DNA from: an uncultured Bacilli bacterium | GTDB lineage: Bacteria; Bacillota_I; Bacilli_A; RFN20; CAG-449 | NCBI GenBank assembly: GCA_944332525.1 | Contig: CALVKD010000001.1 | Span: 49,841-113,840 of the forward strand | DNA length: 64,000 nt | Reading direction: 5' to 3' | Shown: positions 32,569 through 64,000 of the stretch, one piece after another | How the letters are laid out: every line of letters begins with the position of its first letter | How positions within the stretch are numbered: the stretch's first letter is position 1 | Program-made: the position numbers and the translations under genes | Notes under the pieces: generated by a model | What the model saw: the letters and a program-made list of their open reading frames with translations, nothing else | Database searches by the model: none | What the model was told of the DNA's origin: nothing

Positions 32569-35500
32569 CTATTTACCATGATACACGAATGGATCCATAT
32601 GCGAAACATTTTCTTGAGGTTTTCTTGTAACAACTAAGGTTCTATCGACAACCGTTGAGATATCGAGAACTTTCTCTGGTGGTGCCGAAATGATTACTTG
32701 CAAATCGAAATCTTTTAAAATCTTAATGGATTCAACAATTCTGTTACGATCCATCTTTGAGAAAGCTTCATCAAAGATAACTAATCTGATGCAGTTAGAA
32801 ATATTCTTATTGGCCTTAACGCGGTAAAGCTGTGAGAAAGAAGCTAAGATTGAGATATAGAATGGTGTTTGCGTTTCACCGCCAGAAGCCTTTTTAATAT
32901 TTCTCGCTAAGGAATAGACGGCTCCGTCTGGCTTTTTAACTTTTAAGTCGAAGATTAAATATGAGCGATAATCTGTGAACTTTTCAATATTTTGAGCGAC
33001 TTGTTCAGCTTTATCCTTACCTTCTCCATCAGAGATTAAACGGAATAAATTATCCATGACATCTTTATGCTTGAGCAAGAAAGCTTCATCATCGCTATCG
33101 ACATCGAGCAACATCTCATCGGTAATCATATTGTAATAATCGATATATTGAGGATTTGGTTGAATTGTAAATTCATAGGAATCCTGACCGAAATGCGCAT
33201 CTTTTAAAGCTTCGTTAAGGTCACCGATTTGTAAACGCGCCTGTTCAATAGCCGTTTTTAATTTAAAAATGAAATCATCCTTAAATTCTTTAGTTGCCTT
33301 TTGATGTGCATCTTCAATTTTGACTAAGTACTGAGGAAGTTTGACATCGCGCAGCGTTGTTAATTCTCTCTCAAAATCATCATTATCTTCTTTAGTGATA
33401 TCATATGATAATTTATAGGTAATAACGTAAGAAGACCGACGATCTTTCAATTGTTCATTAAGGTTTCTAATTCTGTTTTGAACCTTAGAGTAGATATCAT
33501 CATATTTTAAACGGATATCAGCTAATGAGAGATTGCTTGCGAGTTCGTTATCAAAGGTTGGTTTTGCTGTTTGCTCAACCCATTCCGTATCAAATGAATT
33601 CTCAATTTCTTCCATGTAAGCTGAGGATTTCTTAACTTCTTGCGGAATCTTTTCTTCTTTAGTGACTTTAATATTATTCTGTAAAGCACCTTTTTCGAGA
33701 ATTAATTCATTTTTCTGATTGTTAAGTTGTTCGATATCGGTATCAATTCTCTTAATCTTCGTATCAGTAGTTTGCAGATCTTGACTCGTACCAGCTTTTA
33801 ATTCTTCTTCGTACTGTTTAAGATTATTCTTTAATGAAGCGAGTAAATCGCTGCTATCGAGCTGATTGAGGCAAATCATCTGCTCAGATTGCGACATAAT
33901 ATCGAGTTCTTTAGCTTCAGATAAAGTATCAACTAATTCTTTTAATGCTCCGATTGATTTAGCTTCTAAATCGAGTTCTTTCATTCTCTGATCGCGGACT
34001 TCACGCGATACCGATCTTCCAATCAACGGATAACGGTAAAGGCGATCTGGTATGACAAAGGAAGCAAATGAACGATATCCAATGCAGGAAGGACAAATAC
34101 CATGTCCGGATTCTCTAGCTTCTTGGAAAGTTTCACATTTTGTTAATCGACCAATTAAGAAATTAGTATAATCGCGGGCACCTTTATGATCGGTAATAAT
34201 TTCTTCGGCCAAAGAATTTTCTTCAGCTTCAAAATTATGCTGAGCTAACGCTCTCTCATCGACTAAACCCGTCCGGTGATAGCCGTTTCTCTTCATAATA
34301 CCCGGCAATAACTTATTAGCAACTTCGTAATATTTATCCTTAACGAATAAATTAAGTTTCTGAGCGGAAATAAATCCCTCAATTGCATTAATCCAGCGCT
34401 TATTACGAATATCGACCAAATCAGCGTAAATTAAGACATCAACTTTTTCATGGAAATGATCTTCAAGAGCCAATTTTAATTGATTTCTGACATTGAGGAA
34501 AGCATCGTCATAGTATTTACCGCTGCTTGAAGTAACTAAAGTCTGCTTTTGCTGGCTAATTCTATTGATAACCATACCGATAGATGACTTTAAGACGCTA
34601 TATTCTTCAATAACAACATTTTTAAAATCACTAATAGCCGATGAAAAGTTTTTGAATAAGTCTGGTGTCAAAGAGCCTAAATTCAAGGCTTCTTTGGTTG
34701 CCATTAACGCTTTATCAAGATTGGCACATTCTAATTCAAGATGCTTCAAAGACTCTAATACTTTGTTATCATCAGTATGCTCAGCAGAACTCAAGCATAA
34801 TGAATTAATTTTATTTTCATAATTTAAGAAATTATTAACATACGTATTAATGCGAGTATATAAAGCTTGAAGATTTTCTTCAATCTCGCAAACTTTTCTT
34901 TCAGCATCTTGATAAGATTTTCTTAAATCTTGAGTTAATTTATAATTATCATTAGAAAATTTATAAGCGATTAAGGTTTGCTTTTGTTCTTCAAGAGCTT
35001 CAATATCGCTTTCGATTTCCCTAATTGAAGAATCAATTTCAGCAATTCTTTCCTCAGCGCGGCTGATATCATTATGATAAGATGCGATATAATCAGAAGA
35101 AATCTGTAAGAAAATTCTCTTCGAGATATAGGAAGCTAAGGACATTTCTTTACGTTTATCAACTATCTGTTGATAAATATTATGAATTTCTTCAAGCGAT
35201 TTAATTTTTACCATCATCTCATCGGCTTCGATTTTTAAGCGTTCATATGAGGTAATATTTGATTTCATCGATTCAATATTAATATCATTAGGAACATCGC
35301 AAACATATTCGGTGATAAAGGATTCAATATTGGTGATAGGTATAAAGGAAACAGCCTTCTTAAAGAGTGAGAAGTATTTTTCCTTAAGATTACCAAATTT
35401 TTCTTTAATGACCCCTTGGTATTGCGCGTTTGAATCACAGAAAATAAATTTATCGCTATTATAATTTGCACTAAAATACTCTTGCAAAGTCTTTTGTGAC

Positions 35501-35937
35501 ATTGGAACGCGATCGATTAAGAAATGGTTTTCTGGAAATTTATCTTCGAGATAGAAGAAGCGGTGTTGCTCAGAACCATCATCGAAAACATCAAAAACGA
35601 CACCGACAGTAAACGGTTGATTCAAGACATCATCGAAAAATTCCAGTGCGATATAGGAAGTAAAGCGACCAGTTCTTAAAAATTTTGTCGATCCATCTTC
35701 ATTATCACCGACTTCACAGCGCAGATACCCTTTTAAAGTACGACCGGATTTTTCATTAGCAGCCTTATTAAAAGAACGACCATAGGTGTCGCCAAGCAAA
35801 ACAACTTGCATAGCATCGATAACTGTCGATTTTCCGGCAGCATTAACACCGGTTAAAAAGTTTAACATGCCGAATTCAACTTCAATATTTTGGAAATAGT
35901 GCCAGTTGATCAGACGCAATTTAGTTAATTTTTTCAT
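32569..35937 (-). CDS. MukB/MksB/JetC-like SMC-family ATPase
   Basis: 1122 aa. N-terminal LRLINWHYF...GVNAAGKST (MukB-type Walker A). Long coiled-coil regions around a globular hinge of about 170 aa (GICPSCIGYRS). C-terminal SGGE signature, Walker B LVIFDEAFSKMD and a D-loop. Confidence 0.7.
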   Translation of the reverse strand: MKKLTKLRLINWHYFQNIEVEFGMLNFLTGVNAAGKSTVIDAMQVVLLGDTYGRSFNKAANEKSGRTLKGYLRCEVGDNEDGSTKFLRTGRFTSYIALEFFDDVLNQPFTVGVVFDVFDDGSEQHRFFYLEDKFPENHFLIDRVPMSQKTLQEYFSANYNSDKFIFCDSNAQYQGVIKEKFGNLKEKYFSLFKKAVSFIPITNIESFITEYVCDVPNDINIESMKSNITSYERLKIEADEMMVKIKSLEEIHNIYQQIVDKRKEMSLASYISKRIFLQISSDYIASYHNDISRAEERIAEIDSSIREIESDIEALEEQKQTLIAYKFSNDNYKLTQDLRKSYQDAERKVCEIEENLQALYTRINTYVNNFLNYENKINSLCLSSAEHTDDNKVLESLKHLELECANLDKALMATKEALNLGSLTPDLFKNFSSAISDFKNVVIEEYSVLKSSIGMVINRISQQKQTLVTSSSGKYYDDAFLNVRNQLKLALEDHFHEKVDVLIYADLVDIRNKRWINAIEGFISAQKLNLFVKDKYYEVANKLLPGIMKRNGYHRTGLVDERALAQHNFEAEENSLAEEIITDHKGARDYTNFLIGRLTKCETFQEARESGHGICPSCIGYRSFASFVIPDRLYRYPLIGRSVSREVRDQRMKELDLEAKSIGALKELVDTLSEAKELDIMSQSEQMICLNQLDSSDLLASLKNNLKQYEEELKAGTSQDLQTTDTKIKRIDTDIEQLNNQKNELILEKGALQNNIKVTKEEKIPQEVKKSSAYMEEIENSFDTEWVEQTAKPTFDNELASNLSLADIRLKYDDIYSKVQNRIRNLNEQLKDRRSSYVITYKLSYDITKEDNDDFERELTTLRDVKLPQYLVKIEDAHQKATKEFKDDFIFKLKTAIEQARLQIGDLNEALKDAHFGQDSYEFTIQPNPQYIDYYNMITDEMLLDVDSDDEAFLLKHKDVMDNLFRLISDGEGKDKAEQVAQNIEKFTDYRSYLIFDLKVKKPDGAVYSLARNIKKASGGETQTPFYISILASFSQLYRVKANKNISNCIRLVIFDEAFSKMDRNRIVESIKILKDFDLQVIISAPPEKVLDISTVVDRTLVVTRKPQENVSHMDPFVYHGK

Positions 35938-36566
35938 TCTGCATCCTCCATAAATTCTTCATCCGGAAGTGATTCAACTTGCTTATATAGGCTTTGAATT
36001 ACTTCGTAATCAACCACAAATGCAATTGAAGGATTAATATAGAAAGTTAAATTTTTCTCATAAAAATCCCCGCTTATTCTCGTTATAATATTATGTTGTT
36101 CTAAAAAGCGATATGACGATTCAAGCGATGAATACGAGACCCTTTTATCTTGACGAATTAAATGCATATTAATTAAGCACTGCATTAATTCATGGCTAGT
36201 AAAACGGACGACTTGATTAAGTGCGTCATCATTATTTTGAGTTTCGTAGACATATCTTAAAGCAAAAATAACTAAGGATGTTTTTAAATCCAATTTCAAA
36301 TGATTTTCTTCATATTCATTTTTAATAGAAATTACCCCGCGCGATGAATCTTTATTAACAATCCATCCAGATAAAGAGAGATAGTTTGAAACTAAATCAA
36401 GATGGCGCTCAATAAAGGAATACTCTTTACTCGCCCGCATCATCTTCGCATTGCGGTCGTAATAATCTCTGAGAATAAAACTTTTCAGCATCAAAGTATT
36501 AACCACATGGGCGAATTCCTCTTTTTCGACATTGCGCAATTGTTCATATTCTTCTAGCATCGTCAA
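35934..36566 (-). CDS. MukE/MksE/JetB-like kite subunit candidate
   Basis: 210 aa, overlapping both neighbours by 4 nt. Size and position match the kite subunit of MukFEB-like operons. Assigned by context, not by motif. Confidence 0.45.
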   Translation of the reverse strand: MTMLEEYEQLRNVEKEEFAHVVNTLMLKSFILRDYYDRNAKMMRASKEYSFIERHLDLVSNYLSLSGWIVNKDSSRGVISIKNEYEENHLKLDLKTSLVIFALRYVYETQNNDDALNQVVRFTSHELMQCLINMHLIRQDKRVSYSSLESSYRFLEQHNIITRISGDFYEKNLTFYINPSIAFVVDYEVIQSLYKQVESLPDEEFMEDAE

Positions 36567-37993
36567 TTCTCCTTTTTAGTATAGATATAATCTGGTGCAT
36601 TAACTTTATCATTAACTTCGACGTTGACGTTTAATTTATCCTCGCGGTCCATATCATAGAAACTAATCGGTGCTGTTGCTTTAATTGCTCCAAGCATCAA
36701 ATAGAGGAAATCATCAACGCTTTCAACTTTACAATCGTGGACGCGTATTTGTTTTTTATCTTGAAAATTTTCAGCCATAAATTCCATAACTCTCTCATCG
36801 GAGTAACGCGCTGTTTCAGCCATTGCCATCGTCATTTGCGAATCATCGAAAATATGTTCATCATCAGGTAATGGAAGCGGATCAGAGAAGAACTTTTGAT
36901 TTCTCTCATATGGTTTTCTAAGCGATCCCTCATCATAATAACCCTGCGTGTAGAGTTTTATTGAAGAGCCAAATGCCCTAATAATATTTGGATATGAGGA
37001 ATTTCTATCTTGCTCATTTTTGGAAAGATTTCTAGCTAATACCGTAAAAATCTTTTCGAGTTTACCCTTAACCGATTTATCGTGGTTATTGAGGAAGATG
37101 ACCTTATCCGCCGAAGCTTTAACATATTCCGATTGCGAAACATCAATATTATTAATTTCCGTAGACAAGCGGAGATAGATATCTTGAATTCTCGTAATCT
37201 TTTTTACTACATCATCAGTAGCTTCTAATCGCGATTTGACCGATTTATTTTCTTTAAGGCATTGATCAATTAATTTTTCACGTACTGTATCAACTTCTAA
37301 CCAGCGTTTCAAAATTGAAGAAATTGGTCCGTGATAAAGAGTGATTGAATCATGGGTTTTTAACGGATGGTAAATTGGATCGACGACGTCTTCACGGCAG
37401 ATATCAAAATGCTGCTTGAGGACTTCGTTAGGCTCAAACATATCGCTGAGCTGACGTTTATATACTTTAATTGAATGATCGAGTTTAGCTACCTCAATGG
37501 CTAATGATTCAGTATTGTTATAGGCATTTTCTAAGGTTTTATACATTGATTCATCTTGATTATCATCTTCATATTTTAAATCAGCATATGTTGTATGCAC
37601 GTAGCTAACATAATGATTTGCAGAAGTGTCGGCAAATTCGTAAATCAGTTTCAACATATTAACAGAATATGAAGGAAGCAAGATATATTCGGTGCCTGTT
37701 TTTGTGTCGTAATCAATATAAATCCAACCTGTTTCAATTAAGCGTTTAACAATTTGATTTGCTTTCGCGCCAATTGATGTTTCGCTTACTACACCATCTT
37801 CTTCATCAACGTAAGAATTTAAATCATCGCCGGAACGACTCTTTAATAATTCGACATAATCATTTTTTCTTATGCGCGCGCGATAAAGGTTTAATGCATC
37901 ATAAAGCACGATTAAAGCATCGCCGTAAACTCCCTTATTACGCGATGCTAAAATTGAAAAGAAATTATCCGGTAATTTTGCAAATAAATTCAT
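36563..37993 (-). CDS. MukF/MksF/JetA-like kleisin subunit candidate
   Basis: 476 aa, first gene of a translationally coupled three-gene operon with the SMC-like ATPase. Assigned by size and context. Confidence 0.45.
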   Translation of the reverse strand: MNLFAKLPDNFFSILASRNKGVYGDALIVLYDALNLYRARIRKNDYVELLKSRSGDDLNSYVDEEDGVVSETSIGAKANQIVKRLIETGWIYIDYDTKTGTEYILLPSYSVNMLKLIYEFADTSANHYVSYVHTTYADLKYEDDNQDESMYKTLENAYNNTESLAIEVAKLDHSIKVYKRQLSDMFEPNEVLKQHFDICREDVVDPIYHPLKTHDSITLYHGPISSILKRWLEVDTVREKLIDQCLKENKSVKSRLEATDDVVKKITRIQDIYLRLSTEINNIDVSQSEYVKASADKVIFLNNHDKSVKGKLEKIFTVLARNLSKNEQDRNSSYPNIIRAFGSSIKLYTQGYYDEGSLRKPYERNQKFFSDPLPLPDDEHIFDDSQMTMAMAETARYSDERVMEFMAENFQDKKQIRVHDCKVESVDDFLYLMLGAIKATAPISFYDMDREDKLNVNVEVNDKVNAPDYIYTKKEN

Positions 37994-41319: not shown

Positions 41320-43734
41320 TTAATCCTCGCTTTGGTTATCTTCATTTAAGTATTCATCCGACAGGGTGCGCCTGCCGTTTTCTTTAATTATTATTCCGTC
41401 TTCTTCAAGAGCATCAAGCAAACCATCTGCTCTAGCAAATCCGATTTTAAAGGCGTTTTGAATTTTTGTCGGAGTGCATTTTCCAGTTTCTAAAACGTAA
41501 TTTTTAACCGCTGGATAAAGGTCATCATCATGGAAATCTTTAACGCTTTCATTAATTAAATCATAAGCTGTTGGAGCTTTCGATGATAAATCGAATTTTG
41601 GATCATAATGGACTGACGCATATTTCTTAATATGCTCACAGACGGCATAAATTTCTTTTCCGTCAATATAAGCTGACTGAACTCTGAGCAACGATTTCGG
41701 CGAAGGCAACCGGGCGAGCAAGTCTCCTTTTCCCATTAAGTTTTCCGCGCCATCTTCATCGATGATAATTCGTGACTCTAACGATGAAGAAACCGACAAA
41801 GCGATTCTTGACGGGATATTCGCCTTGATTTCACCAGTAATTATTTTAGCTGATGGTCTTTGGGTGGCAATAACCATATAAATTCCGCAAGCTCGTGCTT
41901 TTTGAGCTAAGCGCTGAATGAATTTGCTCGTCTCTTTGTCGCCATCGGACATAAAGTCAGCAAACTCATCACAGATCATCACGATATAAGGGATTTTCGG
42001 ATAATTCTTTTCTTCACAGACTTCGAGGTATTCTTTGTAGTTAGCAGCCCCTTCGCCTTTTTCAGCAAATAAATCATAACGGCTTTCCATTTCTTCAACT
42101 AATTTTTTCAAGGCGATTTTTCCTTGATCGGTCGAAGTGATAACCGGGCAGAGCAAATGCGGCAAATTTTGGTAACGCAAGAATTCAACGCGCTTAGGGT
42201 CGATAAGCATAAGTTTTAACTCATCGGGTTTATTTCTCATTATTAATGAAGTGATAATATTATGGATAAATACTGATTTACCAGAACCAGTAGTTCCGGC
42301 GATTAATAGGTGAGGCATATCATCAAGCTTGCAAGATATAACTTTACCGGAGATATCCTTACCTAATGGGAATAGCAATTTATCCTTTGCATTATCGGCG
42401 ATTGACTGCATGCAATCTTTAAATGAAACTAAATTCGAAGTTTTGTTTCCAACCTCAATTCCGCATGTATCCTTGCCTTCAATAATTGTTTCAATTCTTA
42501 CTGTTTTATTTCCTTCTAAACGGACTCCTAAATCAGTCTCGAGATTATTGAGGACACTAGTTTTAACATTGTGATTAAGTTTTACGTCAAAGCGAGTTAC
42601 TGATGGACCAATAGTATAAGATATAACTGATGCGCCGATATCAAAGTCGCGGAAACATTCATTAATTTTCTTTGCTCTTTCATCGGCAATCGCAATTTTT
42701 TCTTGTAAATTATTATTTACACTTCTATCTTTTAGAAGGTCAAGGCTCGGATAGACATAAGGGCCTTTATATTCTTCTTCAGGAGTGATTGTTTCAATAG
42801 TTTCTTTTTCAGATTTTTTATTAAAGAAAGAATCAAACTTATCGTTTTTATAGGTATCAATAATCCGTGGCTCTTTCTTAACTGTTTTCTTTTCTTCCAT
42901 TTTCTTCATCGCTTCTTCATGTGAAGGATCAGAGAAAGTAAAAGAATTAGGCTTAATTTCCTCTTTAACTAAATTTACCTCTTCTGGAAGTGGTTCCTTA
43001 ATACTTTCAACTAGTTTTTCACTAGGTTGAGCTATTTTCTTTGTCGGTACGTAAGCTTCCATTTCTTCTTCGATCTTTTCGACATGTATTTCTCTTTTTA
43101 AAGGAGATTCAGTGCTTGGCGAAGAATAATCTGTCTCGGTCTTTTTTAGTTCCTTTTCTTTCTCACGAATAGTTTTGACTTCATTTTTTACGCTGACTAG
43201 ATGTGAAATCAACTGGCTTATCGGAAGGAGTAAAACAAAGATAGCTCCTAAGAAAATTAACAAAGCCGAAATAATCAAGGTACCAATACTAGTAAAGGCA
43301 GTATTTAATGCAGCAGAGAAAAAATACCCGATAAACCCTCCGTTAAGAGAAGAGACGATATCACCAAAAGAGGTAAAAGATAAACCGCTTGATTTTATTG
43401 AATTAGTTAAATCGCTATAAAAAGAGAAAAAGTTATTCATATTTAATCCATCGCTTTGGCTTAACCCAATAGTTAATCCAAAGAAAAGTAAAATAACTCC
43501 CGTCAGAGAAATAATTTTCACCTTTTTGCGAATAAAGATTTTATTAAGTCCATCAAGAAAAAGAAAAACGCTAACTAAGAAATAAGTAGCTCCAAAAATG
43601 TATGCCAAAACAAATGTTAGAAATTTAGAAATTAATCCAACATTTATAAAGGCTAAAACAGAAATAACGATTTCTAAAATACCTAATAATATTCTTGTAA
43701 CCCTAGTCGAGGTCTGATTTTTTTCTTTCTTCAT
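41320..43734 (-). CDS. ftsK: DNA translocase FtsK/SpoIIIE
   Basis: N-terminal TM helices, a Glu/Lys-rich linker, and a motor domain with GTTGSGKS. 804 aa. Confidence 0.9.
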   Translation of the reverse strand: MKKEKNQTSTRVTRILLGILEIVISVLAFINVGLISKFLTFVLAYIFGATYFLVSVFLFLDGLNKIFIRKKVKIISLTGVILLFFGLTIGLSQSDGLNMNNFFSFYSDLTNSIKSSGLSFTSFGDIVSSLNGGFIGYFFSAALNTAFTSIGTLIISALLIFLGAIFVLLLPISQLISHLVSVKNEVKTIREKEKELKKTETDYSSPSTESPLKREIHVEKIEEEMEAYVPTKKIAQPSEKLVESIKEPLPEEVNLVKEEIKPNSFTFSDPSHEEAMKKMEEKKTVKKEPRIIDTYKNDKFDSFFNKKSEKETIETITPEEEYKGPYVYPSLDLLKDRSVNNNLQEKIAIADERAKKINECFRDFDIGASVISYTIGPSVTRFDVKLNHNVKTSVLNNLETDLGVRLEGNKTVRIETIIEGKDTCGIEVGNKTSNLVSFKDCMQSIADNAKDKLLFPLGKDISGKVISCKLDDMPHLLIAGTTGSGKSVFIHNIITSLIMRNKPDELKLMLIDPKRVEFLRYQNLPHLLCPVITSTDQGKIALKKLVEEMESRYDLFAEKGEGAANYKEYLEVCEEKNYPKIPYIVMICDEFADFMSDGDKETSKFIQRLAQKARACGIYMVIATQRPSAKIITGEIKANIPSRIALSVSSSLESRIIIDEDGAENLMGKGDLLARLPSPKSLLRVQSAYIDGKEIYAVCEHIKKYASVHYDPKFDLSSKAPTAYDLINESVKDFHDDDLYPAVKNYVLETGKCTPTKIQNAFKIGFARADGLLDALEEDGIIIKENGRRTLSDEYLNEDNQSED

Positions 43735-43833
43735 AAACTTATAATACTATGTTTTTTCTGAGATAAAAAGATTATCATAAATACTTTAATAATTTATTTT
43801 TTTGATATATATCTGAATATTTTTTCTATTTTC

Positions 43834-43868
43834 GACAAAAGAAAAAGTTTGCTTTTAGGGGCAAACTT
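43834..43868 (-). terminator. putative intrinsic terminator (minus strand) after the 77-aa membrane protein gene
   Basis: On the minus strand: AAGTTTGC, 8-nt loop, GCAAACTT, then TTTTCTTTTG. Confidence 0.45.
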
Positions 43869-44100
43869 ATTCATACTTTTTTTGATTCTTCCAAAGGTAG
43901 ATTACAGTAAATAAACATCCGATCACGATGATTATTGAACCATATATCACATATGGAAGAATATTTGGTGCGAGTTGCATGTAATTAGATATTGCCTTAA
44001 TAGCAATGAACCCGATTAGTAATGCAAGCATAGAGATATCGCACGCGAGTAAAATTCTTAATGCTCTCTTCATCTCGATCATTCCCCTTTTCGTTTTCAC
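43867..44100 (-). CDS. hypothetical small membrane protein (two TM helices)
   Basis: 77 aa, between the ftsL-like gene and ftsK. Confidence 0.4.
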   Translation of the reverse strand: MKTKRGMIEMKRALRILLACDISMLALLIGFIAIKAISNYMQLAPNILPYVIYGSIIIVIGCLFTVIYLWKNQKKYE

Positions 44101-44102
44101 GA

Positions 44103-44330
44103 CTAATCGATAATGACGATATCATCTGCTTCTTGACTTTGCACTTGATTTTGAACCCGCTCGCTTTGGGTCATCGCAACAGTTAATTCCTGATTGGTGT
44201 TAATGATGTTAAATAATGAGGCTCCACCAATTACGATAGTAAGCAAGAATAGCGCTAGTCCGACAATACCTAAACGGAAGCAGATATAATCAAACTTCGT
44301 TTTATTTACTTTGCTGGTTTTGTTTTTCAT
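44103..44330 (-). CDS. FtsL-like small bitopic division protein candidate
   Basis: 75 aa with a single TM helix and a Gln-rich periplasmic coil. Immediately downstream of rsmH, as ftsL is in dcw clusters. Confidence 0.4.
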   Translation of the reverse strand: MKNKTSKVNKTKFDYICFRLGIVGLALFLLTIVIGGASLFNIINTNQELTVAMTQSERVQNQVQSQEADDIVIID

Positions 44331-44335
44331 AAGTC

Positions 44336-45259
44336 CTACTTCCTTTCTAGCACGCGGAGGTGTGCGCTTTTACTACGCGGATTGGCTTCAATCTCTTCTT
44401 TAGAAGGGTTAATCACCTTTCTGGTAACTAATGTGAATTCCGTTTTACGAGGTTCGCTAGGTAAGGTGCGAGATCCTTCCCCTTGATAAGTGTATTTTCG
44501 GAAAATATTTTTCACGATTCGGTCTTCGAGGGAATTAAAGGAAATAACACAGAGACGACCGTGATGATCAAGCATATTAATTGCGGCTTCTAAACCTCTT
44601 TCTAGAACTGCGAGTTCATCATTGACCTCAATTCTGATTGCCTGGAAAACTTGTTTGGCCGGATGGCCTTTCTTTTCCAAGACTTTAAACGGTAATGAAG
44701 CTTTAATAATATCGACAAGTTCAAACGTTGTCTCAATTTTTTTCTTTAATCGTTCCCTAACGATGTTAGAAGCGATTTGATAGGAGTATTTCTCCTCGCC
44801 ATACTCTTTGAAGATGCGTGTTAACTCTTCAAGAGAATAATCATTGACTACTTGATAAGCAGTTAAATTTTTATCGCGATCCATTCTCATATCAAGCTTT
44901 GCATCATATCGATACGAGAATCCGCGGTCACCTTCGTCAAACTGAGCTGAGGACACACCGAGATCGAAGATTGCACCGGATATTTTGTCCACATTTCTCT
45001 TCTTTAATTCTGAGGCGAGATTTTCGAAGTTGGCATGAATAATTTCGTAACGCGAAGATATCTTTGCTAGACGCGCTCTACTTTCTTCAATTGCCTGTTC
45101 ATCTTGGTCAAAGCAATAAAGGAATCCATCCTTGAGTAGCGACAAGATCTTAGAGGAATGCCCTCCGCGACCTAATGTAGCATCAACATATGTGCCGCTT
45201 GGGTTAATCTCAAGATTAGCTATGGTTTCCTGAAGGAGGACAGGAACATGGCTATACAT
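44336..45259 (-). CDS. rsmH: 16S rRNA (cytosine1402-N4)-methyltransferase
   Basis: MraW family: HVPVLL...YVDATLGRGGHS. 307 aa. Confidence 0.95.
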   Translation of the reverse strand: MYSHVPVLLQETIANLEINPSGTYVDATLGRGGHSSKILSLLKDGFLYCFDQDEQAIEESRARLAKISSRYEIIHANFENLASELKKRNVDKISGAIFDLGVSSAQFDEGDRGFSYRYDAKLDMRMDRDKNLTAYQVVNDYSLEELTRIFKEYGEEKYSYQIASNIVRERLKKKIETTFELVDIIKASLPFKVLEKKGHPAKQVFQAIRIEVNDELAVLERGLEAAINMLDHHGRLCVISFNSLEDRIVKNIFRKYTYQGEGSRTLPSEPRKTEFTLVTRKVINPSKEEIEANPRSKSAHLRVLERK

Positions 45260-45698
45260 TCTTATCTTCCTTTTGTGCTATAACCTTAGCATTGGCTTCG
45301 AATGACGCATCATCATTGGCTGAGACTTGTGAATAGATATCTTTGTCCCAGATCTCAACGTGATCATAATTACCGACAACAACAACATCTTTGGTGATGT
45401 GAGCTCTGGCAAGATGATCCTTGCTGAGTGTGATCCGTCCGACTTTATCAAATTCATAATCCATTGAGGAAGCAAAGAAAGTTCTCTTATAGGTTCTCTC
45501 TTCTGGCACTAATTCGTTAAGTCGAGCATTTTTTTCACTTAATTCAATGAAGGTTTCTTCTGGATATAAGCAAAGGCAATTATCAAAACCTTTGGTAACA
45601 TAACATCTACTACCAATAATGTCCCTCATTTTTTGAGGAAGTATTAATCGCGACTTCTCGTCGAGATGGTAAAAGTATGTTCCAAAGAATATTTGCAT
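45252..45698 (-). CDS. mraZ: transcriptional regulator MraZ
   Basis: MQIFFGTYFYHLDEKSRLILP duplicated DXXXR-type domain. ATG at 45698 with GGGAGA SD is preferred over the track's GTG at 45713. Confidence 0.9.
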   Translation of the reverse strand: MQIFFGTYFYHLDEKSRLILPQKMRDIIGSRCYVTKGFDNCLCLYPEETFIELSEKNARLNELVPEERTYKRTFFASSMDYEFDKVGRITLSKDHLARAHITKDVVVVGNYDHVEIWDKDIYSQVSANDDASFEANAKVIAQKEDKNV

Positions 45699-45760
45699 TA
45701 CACTTTCTCCCACCAGATACCCTTATTATACCCTACTCACCCACTTTTGCAATAGATTTT
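45699..45760 (-). promoter_or_regulatory. mraZ promoter with MraZ-box direct repeats
   Basis: Minus strand TTGCAA, 16 nt, TATAAT. Four GTGGG/AGGGT-type repeats at 10-11-bp spacing (TGGGTgagtaGGGTAtaataaGGGTAtctggTGGGA) overlap the -10 hexamer and the leader. Confidence 0.5.
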
Positions 45761-51358: not shown

Positions 51359-52486
51359 CTATTCCTCATCGCTATTTTGTTCTTTTTTCTGATTAAGGAA
51401 AAATGGGAGAACATTATCATCTTCCTCTTCATCAGCATCTTGATGATCAACCGGTTGAGCGATAACTGTTTCATTATTCTCAGCTAACGGATCAAATTCA
51501 CTATCAAATTCGGTAGCGACGATAGAGATTAACATTTCATCGTTAAGTTCATCATTCATCTGGACGCCAAAGATGATATTTGGGGTGTTTTCCGAAGCCG
51601 ATGTAATATAATCAATTGCTTCTTTAACTTCATCAAGTGAAACATTTGTTCCGCAAGTAACATTTGCGATAATTGAATGCGATCCCTTGATTGAAGCCTC
51701 AAGTAATGGTGAAAGCAATGCGCTAGAAGCAGCATCAGTAGCTTTCTTTGGACCTTTACCTGAGCCAAAGCCGATAAGCGCTAAGCCCTTCCCTTCAAGC
51801 GTTGCTTTAACATCGGCGAAGTCGAGATTAATGACACCCGGTAAAACAATTAAATCAGTAATAGTTTTGACCGCTTGAACTAAAACGCGATCAGCTTCAG
51901 CAAAAGCTTCTTTAAATGGACGTGTTCCGTTCATCATCATCAATTTATCATTGCTAACAATAATAATCGCATCAACGTATTGCTTTAAATCATTGATTCC
52001 GTCGATGGCATTTTTTCTGCGCTTTTCACCTTCAAATGAGAATGGTCTAGTAACGATAGCGACTGTTAAAGCCCCGACATCTTTTGCAATCTTTGCAACA
52101 ACAGGAGCAGCTCCAGTACCAGTACCACCACCCATTCCAGCAGCGATAAAAACCATGTTTGCTCCTTCAAGAATTTCTCTAATTTCTTTTTCTGAAGCCT
52201 CAGCAGCTATTTTACCAACTTTTGGATTTCCGCCAGCACCTAAACCATGGGTGACATCTTTTCCTAAGATTAACTTATGTTCAGCTTTTGAAGATGCTAA
52301 TGCCTGAGCGTCGGTATTGCAGGCATAAAATGTTACACCTAATAAATTCTCAGCGACCATCTGATTAACTGCATTTGATCCGCCGCCACCGCAGCCGATG
52401 ACAACGATGCGCGCAACCGGTTCTAACGCGGAGAAGGTTTCTTCCTTTTTTGTTTCTTCAACTTGTTGTAATGTATATTCGTCCAT
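51359..52486 (-). CDS. ftsZ: cell division GTPase FtsZ
   Basis: GGGTGTG tubulin signature ([15 protein letters not shown]). 375 aa with an acidic C-terminal tail. Confidence 0.97.
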
Positions 52487-52500
52487 AAATCTATCTCCCC

Positions 52501-53712
52501 TTATAATTCTTCATCGAATTTATAATTTTGTTTTTTACTAACTTTTTTATTATCAACACGGGTTATAGAAGAAGTAATTGTTTCCTCTTCAACAATCGGC
52601 GTCCGCTTTGATTCGTATTTAATTATTCCGAGGACGGAAATCATATTTTTATTACGAGCTCCAATATTTTCCATATCGAAATTTAATACGGTTCTATTAA
52701 GAGCATTAGCTAAGAGCATATAGAAATTATTGAGATTACTCGTTCCACCGATAACGATTAACGGCAAGTTTTCACTACCCTCAAAATCGCTTTCTAAGAG
52801 ATCTCTTACTTTTTCTAAATTTCTCTTAAGCACATCTTTAATAGTTTGAGTTAAATCATCAAATGTAATTTTTCCCTCAATAAACAACGGAAAGGCAGGT
52901 GACTTTTCCATTCCGTAACGGCATTTTAATAATTCAGCTTCGTTATAGGAAAGATTGAATCTCCGACCAATCTCGGACGTAATATCATCTCCACCGAAAA
53001 GAATAGTCTTACTATCGATAACCTGCGCCTTGTTATGAATAAAAGAGACCGTAGTTAATTGATATCCGATATCAAGTAAAATATATGATTCTGGCATCTT
53101 TGCTTTAGTCGATAGATATAAAGCTGCTGCATGGGATGCTGGAACGAGATGCTTCAAAGTTAGACCGCTTTGAGCTATCAAATGCTTAACGGCATTAACA
53201 AGCGGGGTATCAAGAGCATAAATCGCGCCATGTAAGGAAAGTGACTGCGATATCTTCCCAAGCGGTTCTTCATCATAACGCTCTGTCTCATTGATAATGT
53301 AGGTATCTGGTACAATATCAATTATCGTTAAGTCCTTATATAGAGAAGCATTACTCTTTTTCATCGCGGTTAAAATATTCATCGTATCAACGTGTTGGAT
53401 GACATTATTACCATCGACAGTAATCGTCGTTCCCGTATCAACCTTACAAAGCATATTCAGCGATGGCAAGGCAACAGTCACATCAGTAAAATGAATTTTT
53501 AAATGTTCCTCTATTTCCTTAACGACACTTTGAAAAGTTTTTAAAACGAGAGGCTCATCGATAATCATGCCGTTTTTTAAGCCGTGACAATCAGCTTCGA
53601 CTTTATCAAGAACATAAATCTGATTATTGAGGCAAAAACCAGCTAAACACTTAATTGCCCGTGAAGTGAACTCAACTCCAAGATAATAATTGCTATTTTC
53701 CATCTTTATCAA
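52501..53712 (-). CDS. ftsA: cell division protein FtsA
   Basis: Actin-fold ATPase located between ftsQ-like and ftsZ. 403 aa. Confidence 0.85.
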   Translation of the reverse strand: MIKMENSNYYLGVEFTSRAIKCLAGFCLNNQIYVLDKVEADCHGLKNGMIIDEPLVLKTFQSVVKEIEEHLKIHFTDVTVALPSLNMLCKVDTGTTITVDGNNVIQHVDTMNILTAMKKSNASLYKDLTIIDIVPDTYIINETERYDEEPLGKISQSLSLHGAIYALDTPLVNAVKHLIAQSGLTLKHLVPASHAAALYLSTKAKMPESYILLDIGYQLTTVSFIHNKAQVIDSKTILFGGDDITSEIGRRFNLSYNEAELLKCRYGMEKSPAFPLFIEGKITFDDLTQTIKDVLKRNLEKVRDLLESDFEGSENLPLIVIGGTSNLNNFYMLLANALNRTVLNFDMENIGARNKNMISVLGIIKYESKRTPIVEEETITSSITRVDNKKVSKKQNYKFDEEL

Positions 53713-62935: not shown

Positions 62936-63631
62936 TTAGAAAAGATTATTTTCTTGATAATTTATTTCTTTGTTTAAAGATAATGAAAAGAAACTATTTT
63001 TACCAATTATTAAATGATCAATCAAAGTTACATTTATCATTCCTAATATTACTTGAATATTTTTTGTTTCGGCTAGATCGCCACGTGACGGCGATAAATT
63101 ATCTGACGGATGATTATGCGCGATATATAACTTTTTAGCATGGTGACATAGGCATTCCTCCATAATTTTCTTTGGATATAGGGAAACGCTAGTCTCTCCC
63201 CCGCTAGCCACTACTTCCGCATATAGAAGTTTTTGATTTTTATCAAGCATTATTAAAGCTAGATGTTCTTCTTTCTTTTCACAAATCAAACTTCTAAATA
63301 TATTCCCTGCACCTATTAAGGTAATGGTTTCTTTAGCTAATGCCTCTTGCTTTTTTACTCTTAAGTAAATTTCATTAATCGCAGCAATTTTAATAGCCTT
63401 AGCCAATTTTATACCATCATTTGTCATAAGTTCATCAAGAGATAATTTTAAAATGCTACCAAGACTACCATATTTTTTAATCAGTCCATAGCTAATATCA
63501 AGAACATCTTTATTTTTATTGCCATAGCCAATTAATATAGCGATTAATTCCATATCGCTCAGCTGGTCAATTCCGGTGAGTAAGGCTTTTTCTCGCGGCC
63601 TTTGTTGCTTATTGAGATTTTTTATTCCCAT
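62936..63631 (-). CDS. radC: RadC-family JAB/MPN domain protein
   Basis: JAMM motif HNHPSDNLSPSRGD and an N-terminal HhH region. 231 aa. Confidence 0.85.
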   Translation of the reverse strand: MGIKNLNKQQRPREKALLTGIDQLSDMELIAILIGYGNKNKDVLDISYGLIKKYGSLGSILKLSLDELMTNDGIKLAKAIKIAAINEIYLRVKKQEALAKETITLIGAGNIFRSLICEKKEEHLALIMLDKNQKLLYAEVVASGGETSVSLYPKKIMEECLCHHAKKLYIAHNHPSDNLSPSRGDLAETKNIQVILGMINVTLIDHLIIGKNSFFSLSLNKEINYQENNLF

Positions 63632-63795
63632 GTAAATTTAAATCCGCCAGGTAATGTAGTCGAACCCTCGCTTGACATAAATAAGCGATAAACAATTACA
63701 GCAACTATCGCAGCGACCATGACCGCCATCACCGCGGCAACCGTTAGTTCGCCTCCTTTAAGATTTTTCATTTCATCAATAGTTAATTCTCTCAT
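63622..63795 (-). CDS. hypothetical 57-aa peptide with a double-glycine-leader-like N-terminus and a hydrophobic core
   Basis: MRELTIDEMKNLKGG followed by ELTVAAVMAVMVAAIVAVIVYRLF...LPGGFKFTWE. AAGGAGGA SD lies 9 nt upstream. Overlaps the radC start. Below the ORF-track cut-off. Confidence 0.4.
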   Translation of the reverse strand: MRELTIDEMKNLKGGELTVAAVMAVMVAAIVAVIVYRLFMSSEGSTTLPGGFKFTWE

Positions 63796-63800
63796 AAAAA

Positions 63801-63831
63801 AATCCTCCTTACTTAGCAGATAGGGAGGATT
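63801..63831 (-). terminator. intrinsic terminator after valS, containing the SD of the downstream small ORF
   Basis: Minus strand AATCCTCC(C), loop, GGAGGATT, then TTTTTTT immediately before the ATG at 63795. Confidence 0.5.
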
Positions 63832-63848
63832 AAGTAAAAATAATTAAA

Positions 63849-64000
63849 CTAATTTAAAATATCGCGCTTTTTTTGATACTCGGCTAATTCTTTTAAATAT
63901 TTTTCGCGTTTAGCTTTTTCTTCATTAATTTTCTTTTCTGGAGCTTTAGCGATAAAAGCAGGATTATTTAACATTTTATCGCCGCGGAGTAATTCGTTCT
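63849..64000 (-). CDS. valS: valyl-tRNA synthetase, C-terminal coiled-coil fragment; the rest lies outside the window
   Basis: The reverse-strand frame gives ...LNNPAFIAKAPEKKINEEKAKREKYLKELAEYQKKRDILN*, matching the ValS C-terminal motif (NxGFxxKAP...). Confidence 0.75.
   Translation of the reverse strand, partial: NELLRGDKMLNNPAFIAKAPEKKINEEKAKREKYLKELAEYQKKRDILN

Follow-up and report, generated by a model that had tools for sequence, protein, structure and literature searches.

A conserved small gene with a double-glycine-type leader motif, predicted to encode a membrane protein, is paired with radC in a clade of uncultured Bacilli

In a 64,000-nucleotide stretch of the genome of an uncultured Bacilli bacterium (GenBank assembly GCA_944332525.1, contig CALVKD010000001.1; the whole stretch is referred to here as the window), a small open reading frame (ORF) of 57 codons lies between the 3' end of valS and radC. 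The question that this locus raises is whether the encoded peptide, MRELTIDEMKNLKGGELTVAAVMAVMVAAIVAVIVYRLFMSSEGSTTLPGGFKFTWE, is an exported bacteriocin or pheromone-like peptide with a double-glycine leader, as an initial annotation of the DNA had proposed, or simply a small membrane protein, which the same annotation had named as its fallback. The ORF was found to be present as it had been described, on the minus strand (the strand had not been given), and everything that had been stated about the sequence itself, from the leader positions, the hydrophobic stretch and the second GG to the hairpin and its U7 tract, proved correct. We favour, with moderate confidence, a reading in which the small gene encodes a single-pass membrane protein, produced at a low level and co-translated with RadC, that would serve as the membrane partner of RadC by means of its C-terminal hairpin, the small gene and radC together forming a two-gene module and not a bacteriocin locus. 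What would be new in this is that a peptide of the double-glycine-leader type has become fixed at a housekeeping locus, as a membrane protein coupled to RadC.

The small ORF is a genuine protein-coding gene under purifying selection. When 5.8 billion proteins were searched with a word index, 102 homologues with lengths of 50-77 amino acids (aa; E-values down to 2e-26) were found, none of which carried a Pfam domain, and 208 stretches encoding a relative were found in a one-genome-per-species collection (about 200 species). The family is narrow, since a profile search of 1.84 billion representative proteins (50% identity) gave only 74 clusters at E <= 1e-3, and it is covered by no Pfam or NCBIfam model. 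Across 79 distinct coding segments the median proportion of nonsynonymous differences (pN) was 0.26 against 0.75 for synonymous differences (pS), with synonymous sites saturated; the ratio of nonsynonymous to synonymous substitution rates (dN/dS) was about 0.17 where finite, and third codon positions were 5 times as variable as second positions. The median identity of the small peptide to that of the window was 57% over 62 loci, where the same comparison gave 31.5% for RadC, 38-39% for RuvA and Prp, 53% for Obg, 62% for RuvB, 65% for L21 and 73.5% for L27; as its identity is comparable to that of Obg or RuvB, the peptide is constrained at the level of core housekeeping proteins. A regulatory upstream ORF was rejected on the ground of conservation at the amino-acid level. 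Profile matches to large repeat proteins (P0161, P0169 and P0173) were due to low-complexity 'S/T-rich...LP' repeats and are unrelated to the family.

The peptide is nearly always encoded directly upstream of a RadC-family JAB gene, overlapping or abutting it, whatever surrounds the pair. The overlap with radC in the window is a piece of context that was absent from the initial annotation and that we count as decisive. Of 97 related loci, 95 have a RadC-family gene after the peptide, loci that lack valS among them, and 93 had a RadC homologue on the same strand; the start of radC, extrapolated from the alignments, lay at a median of -1 nucleotide (nt) from the peptide stop codon in these 93, with 91 starts falling within -40 to +60 nt, and in called genes the gaps between peptide and radC were +3, 0, -4, -1, 0 and -4 nt. 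The radC product of the window matched Pfam RadC (6.9e-30), UPF0758_N (1.3e-20) and NCBIfam TIGR00608 (2.2e-45), and its translated metal motif (HNHPSDNLSPSRGD) is intact, with the H-x-H-x7-S-x2-D spacing looked for in a PF04002 protein; the JAMM motif (H-x-H...S-x-x-D) was likewise intact in 68/72 partner RadC proteins.

The pairing is independent of valS. In a distant relative (P0164, locus L087) the genes upstream of the peptide are divergent and unrelated, radC-minC-minD-M23-M50 follow downstream and the overlap is 4 nt; in locus L092 (P0163) the peptide-radC pair is kept behind a gene of opposite orientation. In locus L059 (5974-6591; also L058) the leader of the peptide is extended to 22 aa and has an ITGE junction, and the partner of the peptide, 4 nt downstream, is a 138-aa JAB-only RadC (Pfam RadC 1.3e-10) that has lost the HxH metal ligands and is catalytically dead, the pair sitting among genes for large secreted or lipoprotein-like proteins and not among housekeeping genes. 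Pairing was also present in L089, L094 and L097, the L097 partner being a 179-aa RadC with an intact HNHPSE motif. Because the gene is fixed in front of radC across the clade, a partner of RadC is a likelier identity for its product than a secreted toxin.

Of the two halves of the initial interpretation, the small single-pass membrane protein is the better supported. Mean Kyte-Doolittle hydropathy is 2.45 over L17-M40, the approximate span of the predicted transmembrane helix, an AlphaFold2 model built with a 40-member alignment as input (mean predicted local distance difference test, pLDDT, 75) places helices at residues 6-11 and 14-40 and strands at 44-48 and 52-56, and the mean net charge is -1.4 over the 9 residues before the helix and +1.4 over the 9 residues after it. 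Hydrophobicity, helix and charge asymmetry all favour the fallback, and by the positive-inside rule alone an N-out/C-in topology would be preferred. The protein is in this respect similar to Pf3-coat-like N-out/C-in single-span proteins (proteins of about 50 aa in which a single helix joins an acidic N-tail to a basic C-tail), although it has no sequence relationship to them and its topology is only deduced. In the 40-member alignment G15, V33, Y36, L38, F39, S41, G44, P49, G50, G51, K53, F54 and W56 are invariant, and the best-conserved block is the C-terminal YRLFMSxxGSTTLPGGFKFTW, which holds the second GG (G50-G51). In the model, residues 44-56 (GSTTLPGGFKFTW) form a beta-hairpin whose turn is made by the invariant PGG. 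A type IV prepilin or Flp pilin was considered and rejected: G-1 is invariant, but the glutamate stands at +1 and not at +5 or in a G/xxxxEY motif, the leader is acidic, and the small protein had no Pfam pilin or Flp match at E <= 10.

The resemblance of the N-terminus to a double-glycine leader, on which the bacteriocin proposal was founded, is genuine and family-wide. In the window peptide M-15, L-12, E-8, M-7, L-4, G-2 and G-1 fill all the consensus positions; the 128,000 residues of the six-frame translation of the window contain a single match to the strict motif L[STN]xx[EQD][MLIVC]xx[ILV]xGG, which is in this ORF, while residue shuffles gave 0.0 matches to it and 0.08 to a looser form. 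Counted over 72 distinct homologues, position -12 was L in 68, -11 was S, T or N in 70, -8 was E in 60, -7 was M or L in 53, -4 was I, L or V in 53, -1 was G in all 72 and +1 was E in 70. The N-terminal segment could be either homologous or convergent to double-glycine leaders. Gly -2, however, is not conserved as a cleavage-site residue: it was kept in 37/72, the -2/-1 pairs being GG 37, TG 12, VG 11, AG 5, PG 2, SG 2, FG 2 and IG 1. With the -2 Gly lost in half of the species, the leader segment is probably not essential for the conserved role of the protein.

An exported class II bacteriocin or pheromone, cleaved after G15 by a C39 exporter encoded at a distance and secreted as a 42-aa peptide, would account for the match to the canonical LSxxELxxIxGG consensus at each position, and most homologues are bacteriocin-like in size and in the net positive charge of the C-terminal tail. 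Known peptides of this kind, processed by C39 exporters (TIGR01847; TIGR03949, the lactobin A/cerein 7B class IIb family; ComC/BlpC), share with the small protein a leader of 15-18 aa with L-12, S/T-11, E-8, M/L-7, I-4, G-2 and G-1, a hydrophobic core after it and a total length of about 57 aa. Among the 40 aligned members, 14 had weak matches to TIGR01847 and 10 to TIGR03949, with others matching ComC, lactococcin-G-beta or lantibiotic-leader models; P0052 and P0007 exceeded curated NCBIfam cut-offs (TIGR01847, TIGR03949; 26.3 and 25.9 bits against 21.5), and it is because of this that P0052 bears the NCBI name 'class IIb bacteriocin', with which automatic annotation mislabels members of the family. 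The window peptide itself had no TIGR01847 or TIGR03949 match at E <= 10 and was below all NCBIfam cut-offs, its best match being lant_SP_1948 (E = 0.13).

Against export stands, in addition to the loss of Gly -2 (35/72 have T, V, A, P, S, F or I in its place), the distribution of constraint, since conservation is far higher in the mature part than in the leader and reaches the level of housekeeping proteins, which is the opposite of what bacteriocins display. The core also differs from that of Gly-rich class IIb peptides in being an uninterrupted Ala/Val/Ile helix followed by a beta-hairpin. The locus is a housekeeping one, the gene is probably translationally coupled to radC, no homologue was found on plasmids, and the sole match to a viral contig was a spurious similarity over 22 residues with no matching ORF, leaving no phage homologue. 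The initial annotation had stated that the window holds no C39-peptidase ATP-binding cassette (ABC) transporter, and this held for ORFs of at least 120 aa, among which no C39 peptidase, ABC exporter or peptidase-containing ABC transporter (PCAT) was found, one antisense ORF in the topoisomerase gene being unscanned; these ORFs are housekeeping genes or belong to a Wadjet system, apart from four that had no domain match. In the relatives, 1.1 Mb of sequence (the 97 loci with 6-10 kb on either side, together with the window) was searched by tblastn with a ComA-like probe, for which there was a positive control for the ABC part and none for the C39 part. The matches were limited to a single ABC exporter that lacks C39 (L080) and a single ABC-F protein (L087), and neither an exporter nor an immunity gene or regulator was found within 6-10 kb of the gene in the 97 loci with this probe, whose C39 part was without a control. 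These data do not support a bacteriocin or pheromone locus, and export of the peptide seems to us improbable.

The strict pairing with a JAB-domain gene raises a second alternative, in which the peptide is a substrate of RadC: the JAB (JAMM-like) domain might bind the membrane peptide, or cleave it between G15 and E16, after the invariant glycine, as a precursor and its maturase or partner. The idea is attractive in that JAMM enzymes cut ubiquitin-like proteins behind their Gly-Gly and that the nearest structural relatives of the RadC domain are such proteases. A 2025 review places the RadC domain closest in structure to JAMM proteases that cut C-terminal to ubiquitin or ubiquitin-like (Ub/Ubl) proteins, and gives the function of RadC as unknown. 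The junction residues themselves (G-1 in 72/72, E+1 in 70/72) and the motif that is intact in most partner RadC proteins would also fit. However, no precedent is known for a RadC-type JAB acting as a peptidase, and an earlier contextual analysis favoured a nucleic-acid role for this type of JAB; RadC is near-universal in bacteria that lack the peptide; the -2 Gly is dispensable, and its retention showed no correlation with the integrity of the JAMM motif in RadC; the peptide persists beside the dead JAB of L059 and, in L011, with no radC adjacent to it; and the leader is helical in the AlphaFold2 model and not a beta-grasp tail. We regard binding or cleavage of this kind, as a precursor and partner pair, as doubtful.

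Expression of the small gene may be governed by the hairpin that precedes it. The 3' end of valS (Pfam Val_tRNA-synt_C 4.9e-7; NCBIfam valine--tRNA ligase 1.1e-4) is separated from the small ORF by 53 nt, and the hairpin begins 17 nt past the valS TAG, probably outside the footprint of a terminating ribosome. With a folding energy of -12.0 kcal/mol (z = -3.2; 0/200 shuffles folded as well), a stable stem and the U7 tract, it has the form of an intrinsic terminator; a simple terminator scan made no call here because of its loop rule of 3-8 nt. The Shine-Dalgarno (SD) sequence GGAGG of the small gene was predicted to pair with a CCUCC-type upstream arm in 57/77 distinct upstream regions (median 12 pairs, -11.4 kcal/mol). 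The SD was paired in 78% of 74 loci, compared to 29% of 296 other SD-bearing genes of the same loci, and paired with a U-rich tail following in 47% of loci compared to 5% of control genes. The pairs flanking the invariant GGAGG vary in a compensatory manner: the pair immediately 3' of the SD is A-U in 24 loci and U-A in 21, the pair at position -2 is A-U in 21 and U-A in 20, and A-U, C-G, U-A and G-C all occur at position -3; by this covariation, an SD-sequestering hairpin is conserved.

The initial annotation had called the placement of the SD within the valS terminator attenuator-like. The hairpin is real and conserved, while the term is only loosely apt: 'attenuator' overstates the evidence because no alternative anti-terminator structure was found, nor any leader-peptide logic, at the hairpin. 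The most economical reading would be an ordinary valS intrinsic terminator whose purine-rich arm is the SD of the next gene and so doubles as an SD trap. In the manner of intrinsic terminators that overlap the next ribosome-binding site, and of hairpins that sequester an SD, it has a GC-containing stem 17 nt past a stop codon, a U7 tract behind the stem and the SD within the 3' arm; it differs in being conserved with compensation over about 57 loci and about 3- to 9-fold enriched over other genes of the same genomes. Promoter-like matches in the valS 3' end, as for a promoter of the gene's own, were not enriched (17/71 loci, 24%, against 130/710 control windows, 18%). No Rfam family was above threshold at the hairpin; the Bacillus small RNA ncr1575 matched 63796-63917 on the minus strand at 28.5 bits against a gathering threshold of 60 (E = 0.041), a match that spans the valS 3' end and the hairpin and is probably a chance product of A/U-rich sequence plus a terminator.

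Being small and hydrophobic, and having its SD in a stable, conserved hairpin, the product might also be a type I toxin-like membrane peptide, its translation held off by the SD-sequestering structure. This we consider very improbable, as the locus is a syntenic housekeeping one under strong purifying selection over about 200 species and not of the accessory, often multi-copy kind, Rfam gave no antisense RNA family and no known RNA motif above threshold, L087, which has no valS upstream, has no hairpin either, and the gene is coupled to one of housekeeping type. L089 retains no more than a weak SD hairpin, valS there having a terminator of its own.

For the favoured reading, that of a membrane partner co-translated with RadC, we propose the following sequence of events. 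Most valS transcripts would end at the hairpin and U-tract, and those that read through would carry the small gene and radC. On these the hairpin would mask the SD, so that the hydrophobic peptide would be made sparingly, and RadC would be translated by termination-reinitiation coupling, with the result that both proteins are made together. Insertion with the N-terminus out and the C-terminus in would put the near-invariant C-terminal beta-hairpin into the cytoplasm, where it could dock on the JAB domain of RadC and act as a regulator or as a tether to the membrane. Read-through, translational coupling, topology and RadC interaction are each what we infer.

Several observations weigh against this proposal. 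In L011 (6001-6787) and L013 the peptide is kept after valS at a site that has lost radC, and behind the peptide come a terminator-like hairpin and then minC-like, minD and spoIVFA/B-like genes; as the peptide is retained there with no adjacent radC, it may have a role that is independent of RadC. Operon linkage within one clade could in part be inherited synteny. The interaction between peptide and RadC, physical or functional, is deduced from gene linkage, and the topology has the positive-inside rule as its sole basis. About half of the loci have the hairpin but no clear U-tract, and termination and read-through at the hairpin are themselves predicted from sequence. Conservation extends to the leader consensus (L-12, E-8, G-1, E+1) itself, a hint at some specific task of the N-terminus, for instance in recognition or cleavage.

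In a further explanation the product is a small membrane protein whose role is unrelated to RadC, and the adjacency is a matter of inherited operon structure in a compact genome. The L011 and L013 loci fit such a protein, as do the far higher conservation of the peptide than of RadC and the fact that much of the neighbourhood is syntenic anyway (the order in relatives is tig-lon-engB-...-valS-X-radC-rplU..., X being the small gene). The pairing, though, outlasts a change of both flanks (L087, L092, L059) as well as the reduction of RadC to JAB-only variants, and the overlap of stop and start is maintained; we therefore think it rather unlikely that the two proteins have nothing to do with each other.

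To our knowledge no small membrane partner of RadC has been described, and our literature searches did not find a description of a RadC-linked small membrane protein. In Bacillus subtilis, radC lies in a maf-radC-mreBCD-minCD operon. As in the RadC/UPF0758 (PF04002) proteins, of which that of B. subtilis is an example, the downstream partner here is of the canonical RadC type, its JAMM-like motif intact, and the gene order of the window clade, valS ... radC ... minCD, spoIVF-like, rplU-ysxB-rpmA-obg, is similar to the wider B. subtilis order; it differs from the B. subtilis operon in that maf and mreBCD are absent and a small gene stands directly upstream of radC. As RadC is among the most widespread bacterial proteins whose function has been unknown for decades, the small protein offers a concrete and testable partner for it. 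Were it bound or cleaved by RadC, it would be the first candidate substrate or partner of RadC, and a double-glycine-type leader would be in use outside the C39-exporter pathway. The hairpin would be a clear, covariation-supported case of a terminator that doubles as a ribosome-binding-site trap. The importance of the family is limited by its confinement to one uncultured clade, and the role with RadC is read from sequence comparison. The features of the window discussed here and below are collected in the table.

Table. Positions of the small gene, its flanking elements and other features within the 64,000-nt window
Feature	Position	Strand	Details
Small gene, 57 aa	63622..63795	minus	ATG start; from ORF listing and sequence
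Leader-like segment, double-glycine type	within 63622..63795	minus	residues 1-15
Overlap of small gene stop and radC start	63622..63631	minus	10 nt, ATGGGAATAA; radC ATG within the last codons of the small gene
radC	62936..63631	minus	UPF0758 N-terminal domain and RadC-like JAB domain; adjoins small ORF downstream
valS, 3' end	63849..64000	minus	runs off window edge; TAG stop 63851-63849
Stem-loop	63801..63831	minus	presumed valS terminator hairpin and SD sequestration; 5' arm AAUCCUCC (63831-63824), 3' arm GGAGGAUU (63808-63801)
Shine-Dalgarno GGAGG	63804..63808	minus	8 nt before ATG (63795), inside 3' arm of hairpin
U7 tract	63796..63802	minus	presumed terminator tail; SD-to-ATG spacer
Division/cell-wall cluster remnant	41320-45713 and 51359-53712	minus	mraZ-rsmH, then ftsK directly; ftsA-ftsZ elsewhere
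Type I Wadjet anti-plasmid system	31136-37993	minus	
JetA	36563-37993	minus	PADLOC 1.6e-104
JetB	35934-36566	minus	PADLOC 2.1e-59
JetC	32569-35937	minus	PADLOC E = 0
ORF, 149 aa	32108-32557	minus	next ORF after JetC
ORF, 305 aa	31136-32053	minus	second ORF after JetC
ORF, 273 aa	53693-54514	minus	just upstream of ftsA
ORF, 170 aa	28183-28695	minus	

Only a narrow clade of uncultured gut Bacilli with reduced genomes carries the family, and at least one member of this clade is in RFN20. Carriers of the gene are titled 'Bacilli bacterium', 'Erysipelotrichaceae bacterium', 'Coprobacillus sp. CAG:826', 'Tenericutes bacterium' and 'uncultured Mollicutes', and include Candidatus (Ca.) Alectryobacillus merdavium and Ca. 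Fiminaster equi; Ca. Alectryobacillus belongs to order RFN20, family CAG-826. The peptide of L007 (CALVJL01, uncultured Bacilli bacterium) is 98% identical to that of the window and probably stems from the same species. A Bacilli-type locus was also seen in bins titled Azospirillum sp. CAG:239, Acutalibacteraceae, Lachnospiraceae or Phocaeicola dorei (L018-L021, L026 and L064), with the peptide-radC arrangement as in other loci, which suggests that these bins are mislabelled or contaminated.

For the RFN20 families CAG-826 and CAG-288, peptidoglycan is predicted to be absent. The window carries a remnant of the division and cell-wall cluster, in which no mur, ftsW or pbp genes were found after mraZ-rsmH, and mreBCD was not found after radC. 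This reduced cluster is consistent with a peptidoglycan-deficient, Mollicutes-like Bacilli lineage such as these two families.

The window also holds a type I Wadjet anti-plasmid system. Its JetA, JetB and JetC genes were identified with PADLOC, and the next two ORFs (149 and 305 aa) had no match to a JetD model or to Pfam; JetD is either very divergent, split or missing. Two further ORFs, of 273 and 170 aa, had no Pfam match at the thresholds used. In two distant relatives, tiny genes of 30 and 34 aa were called between obg (or nadE) and ruvA (L001, 14364-14456; L004, 15138-15242).

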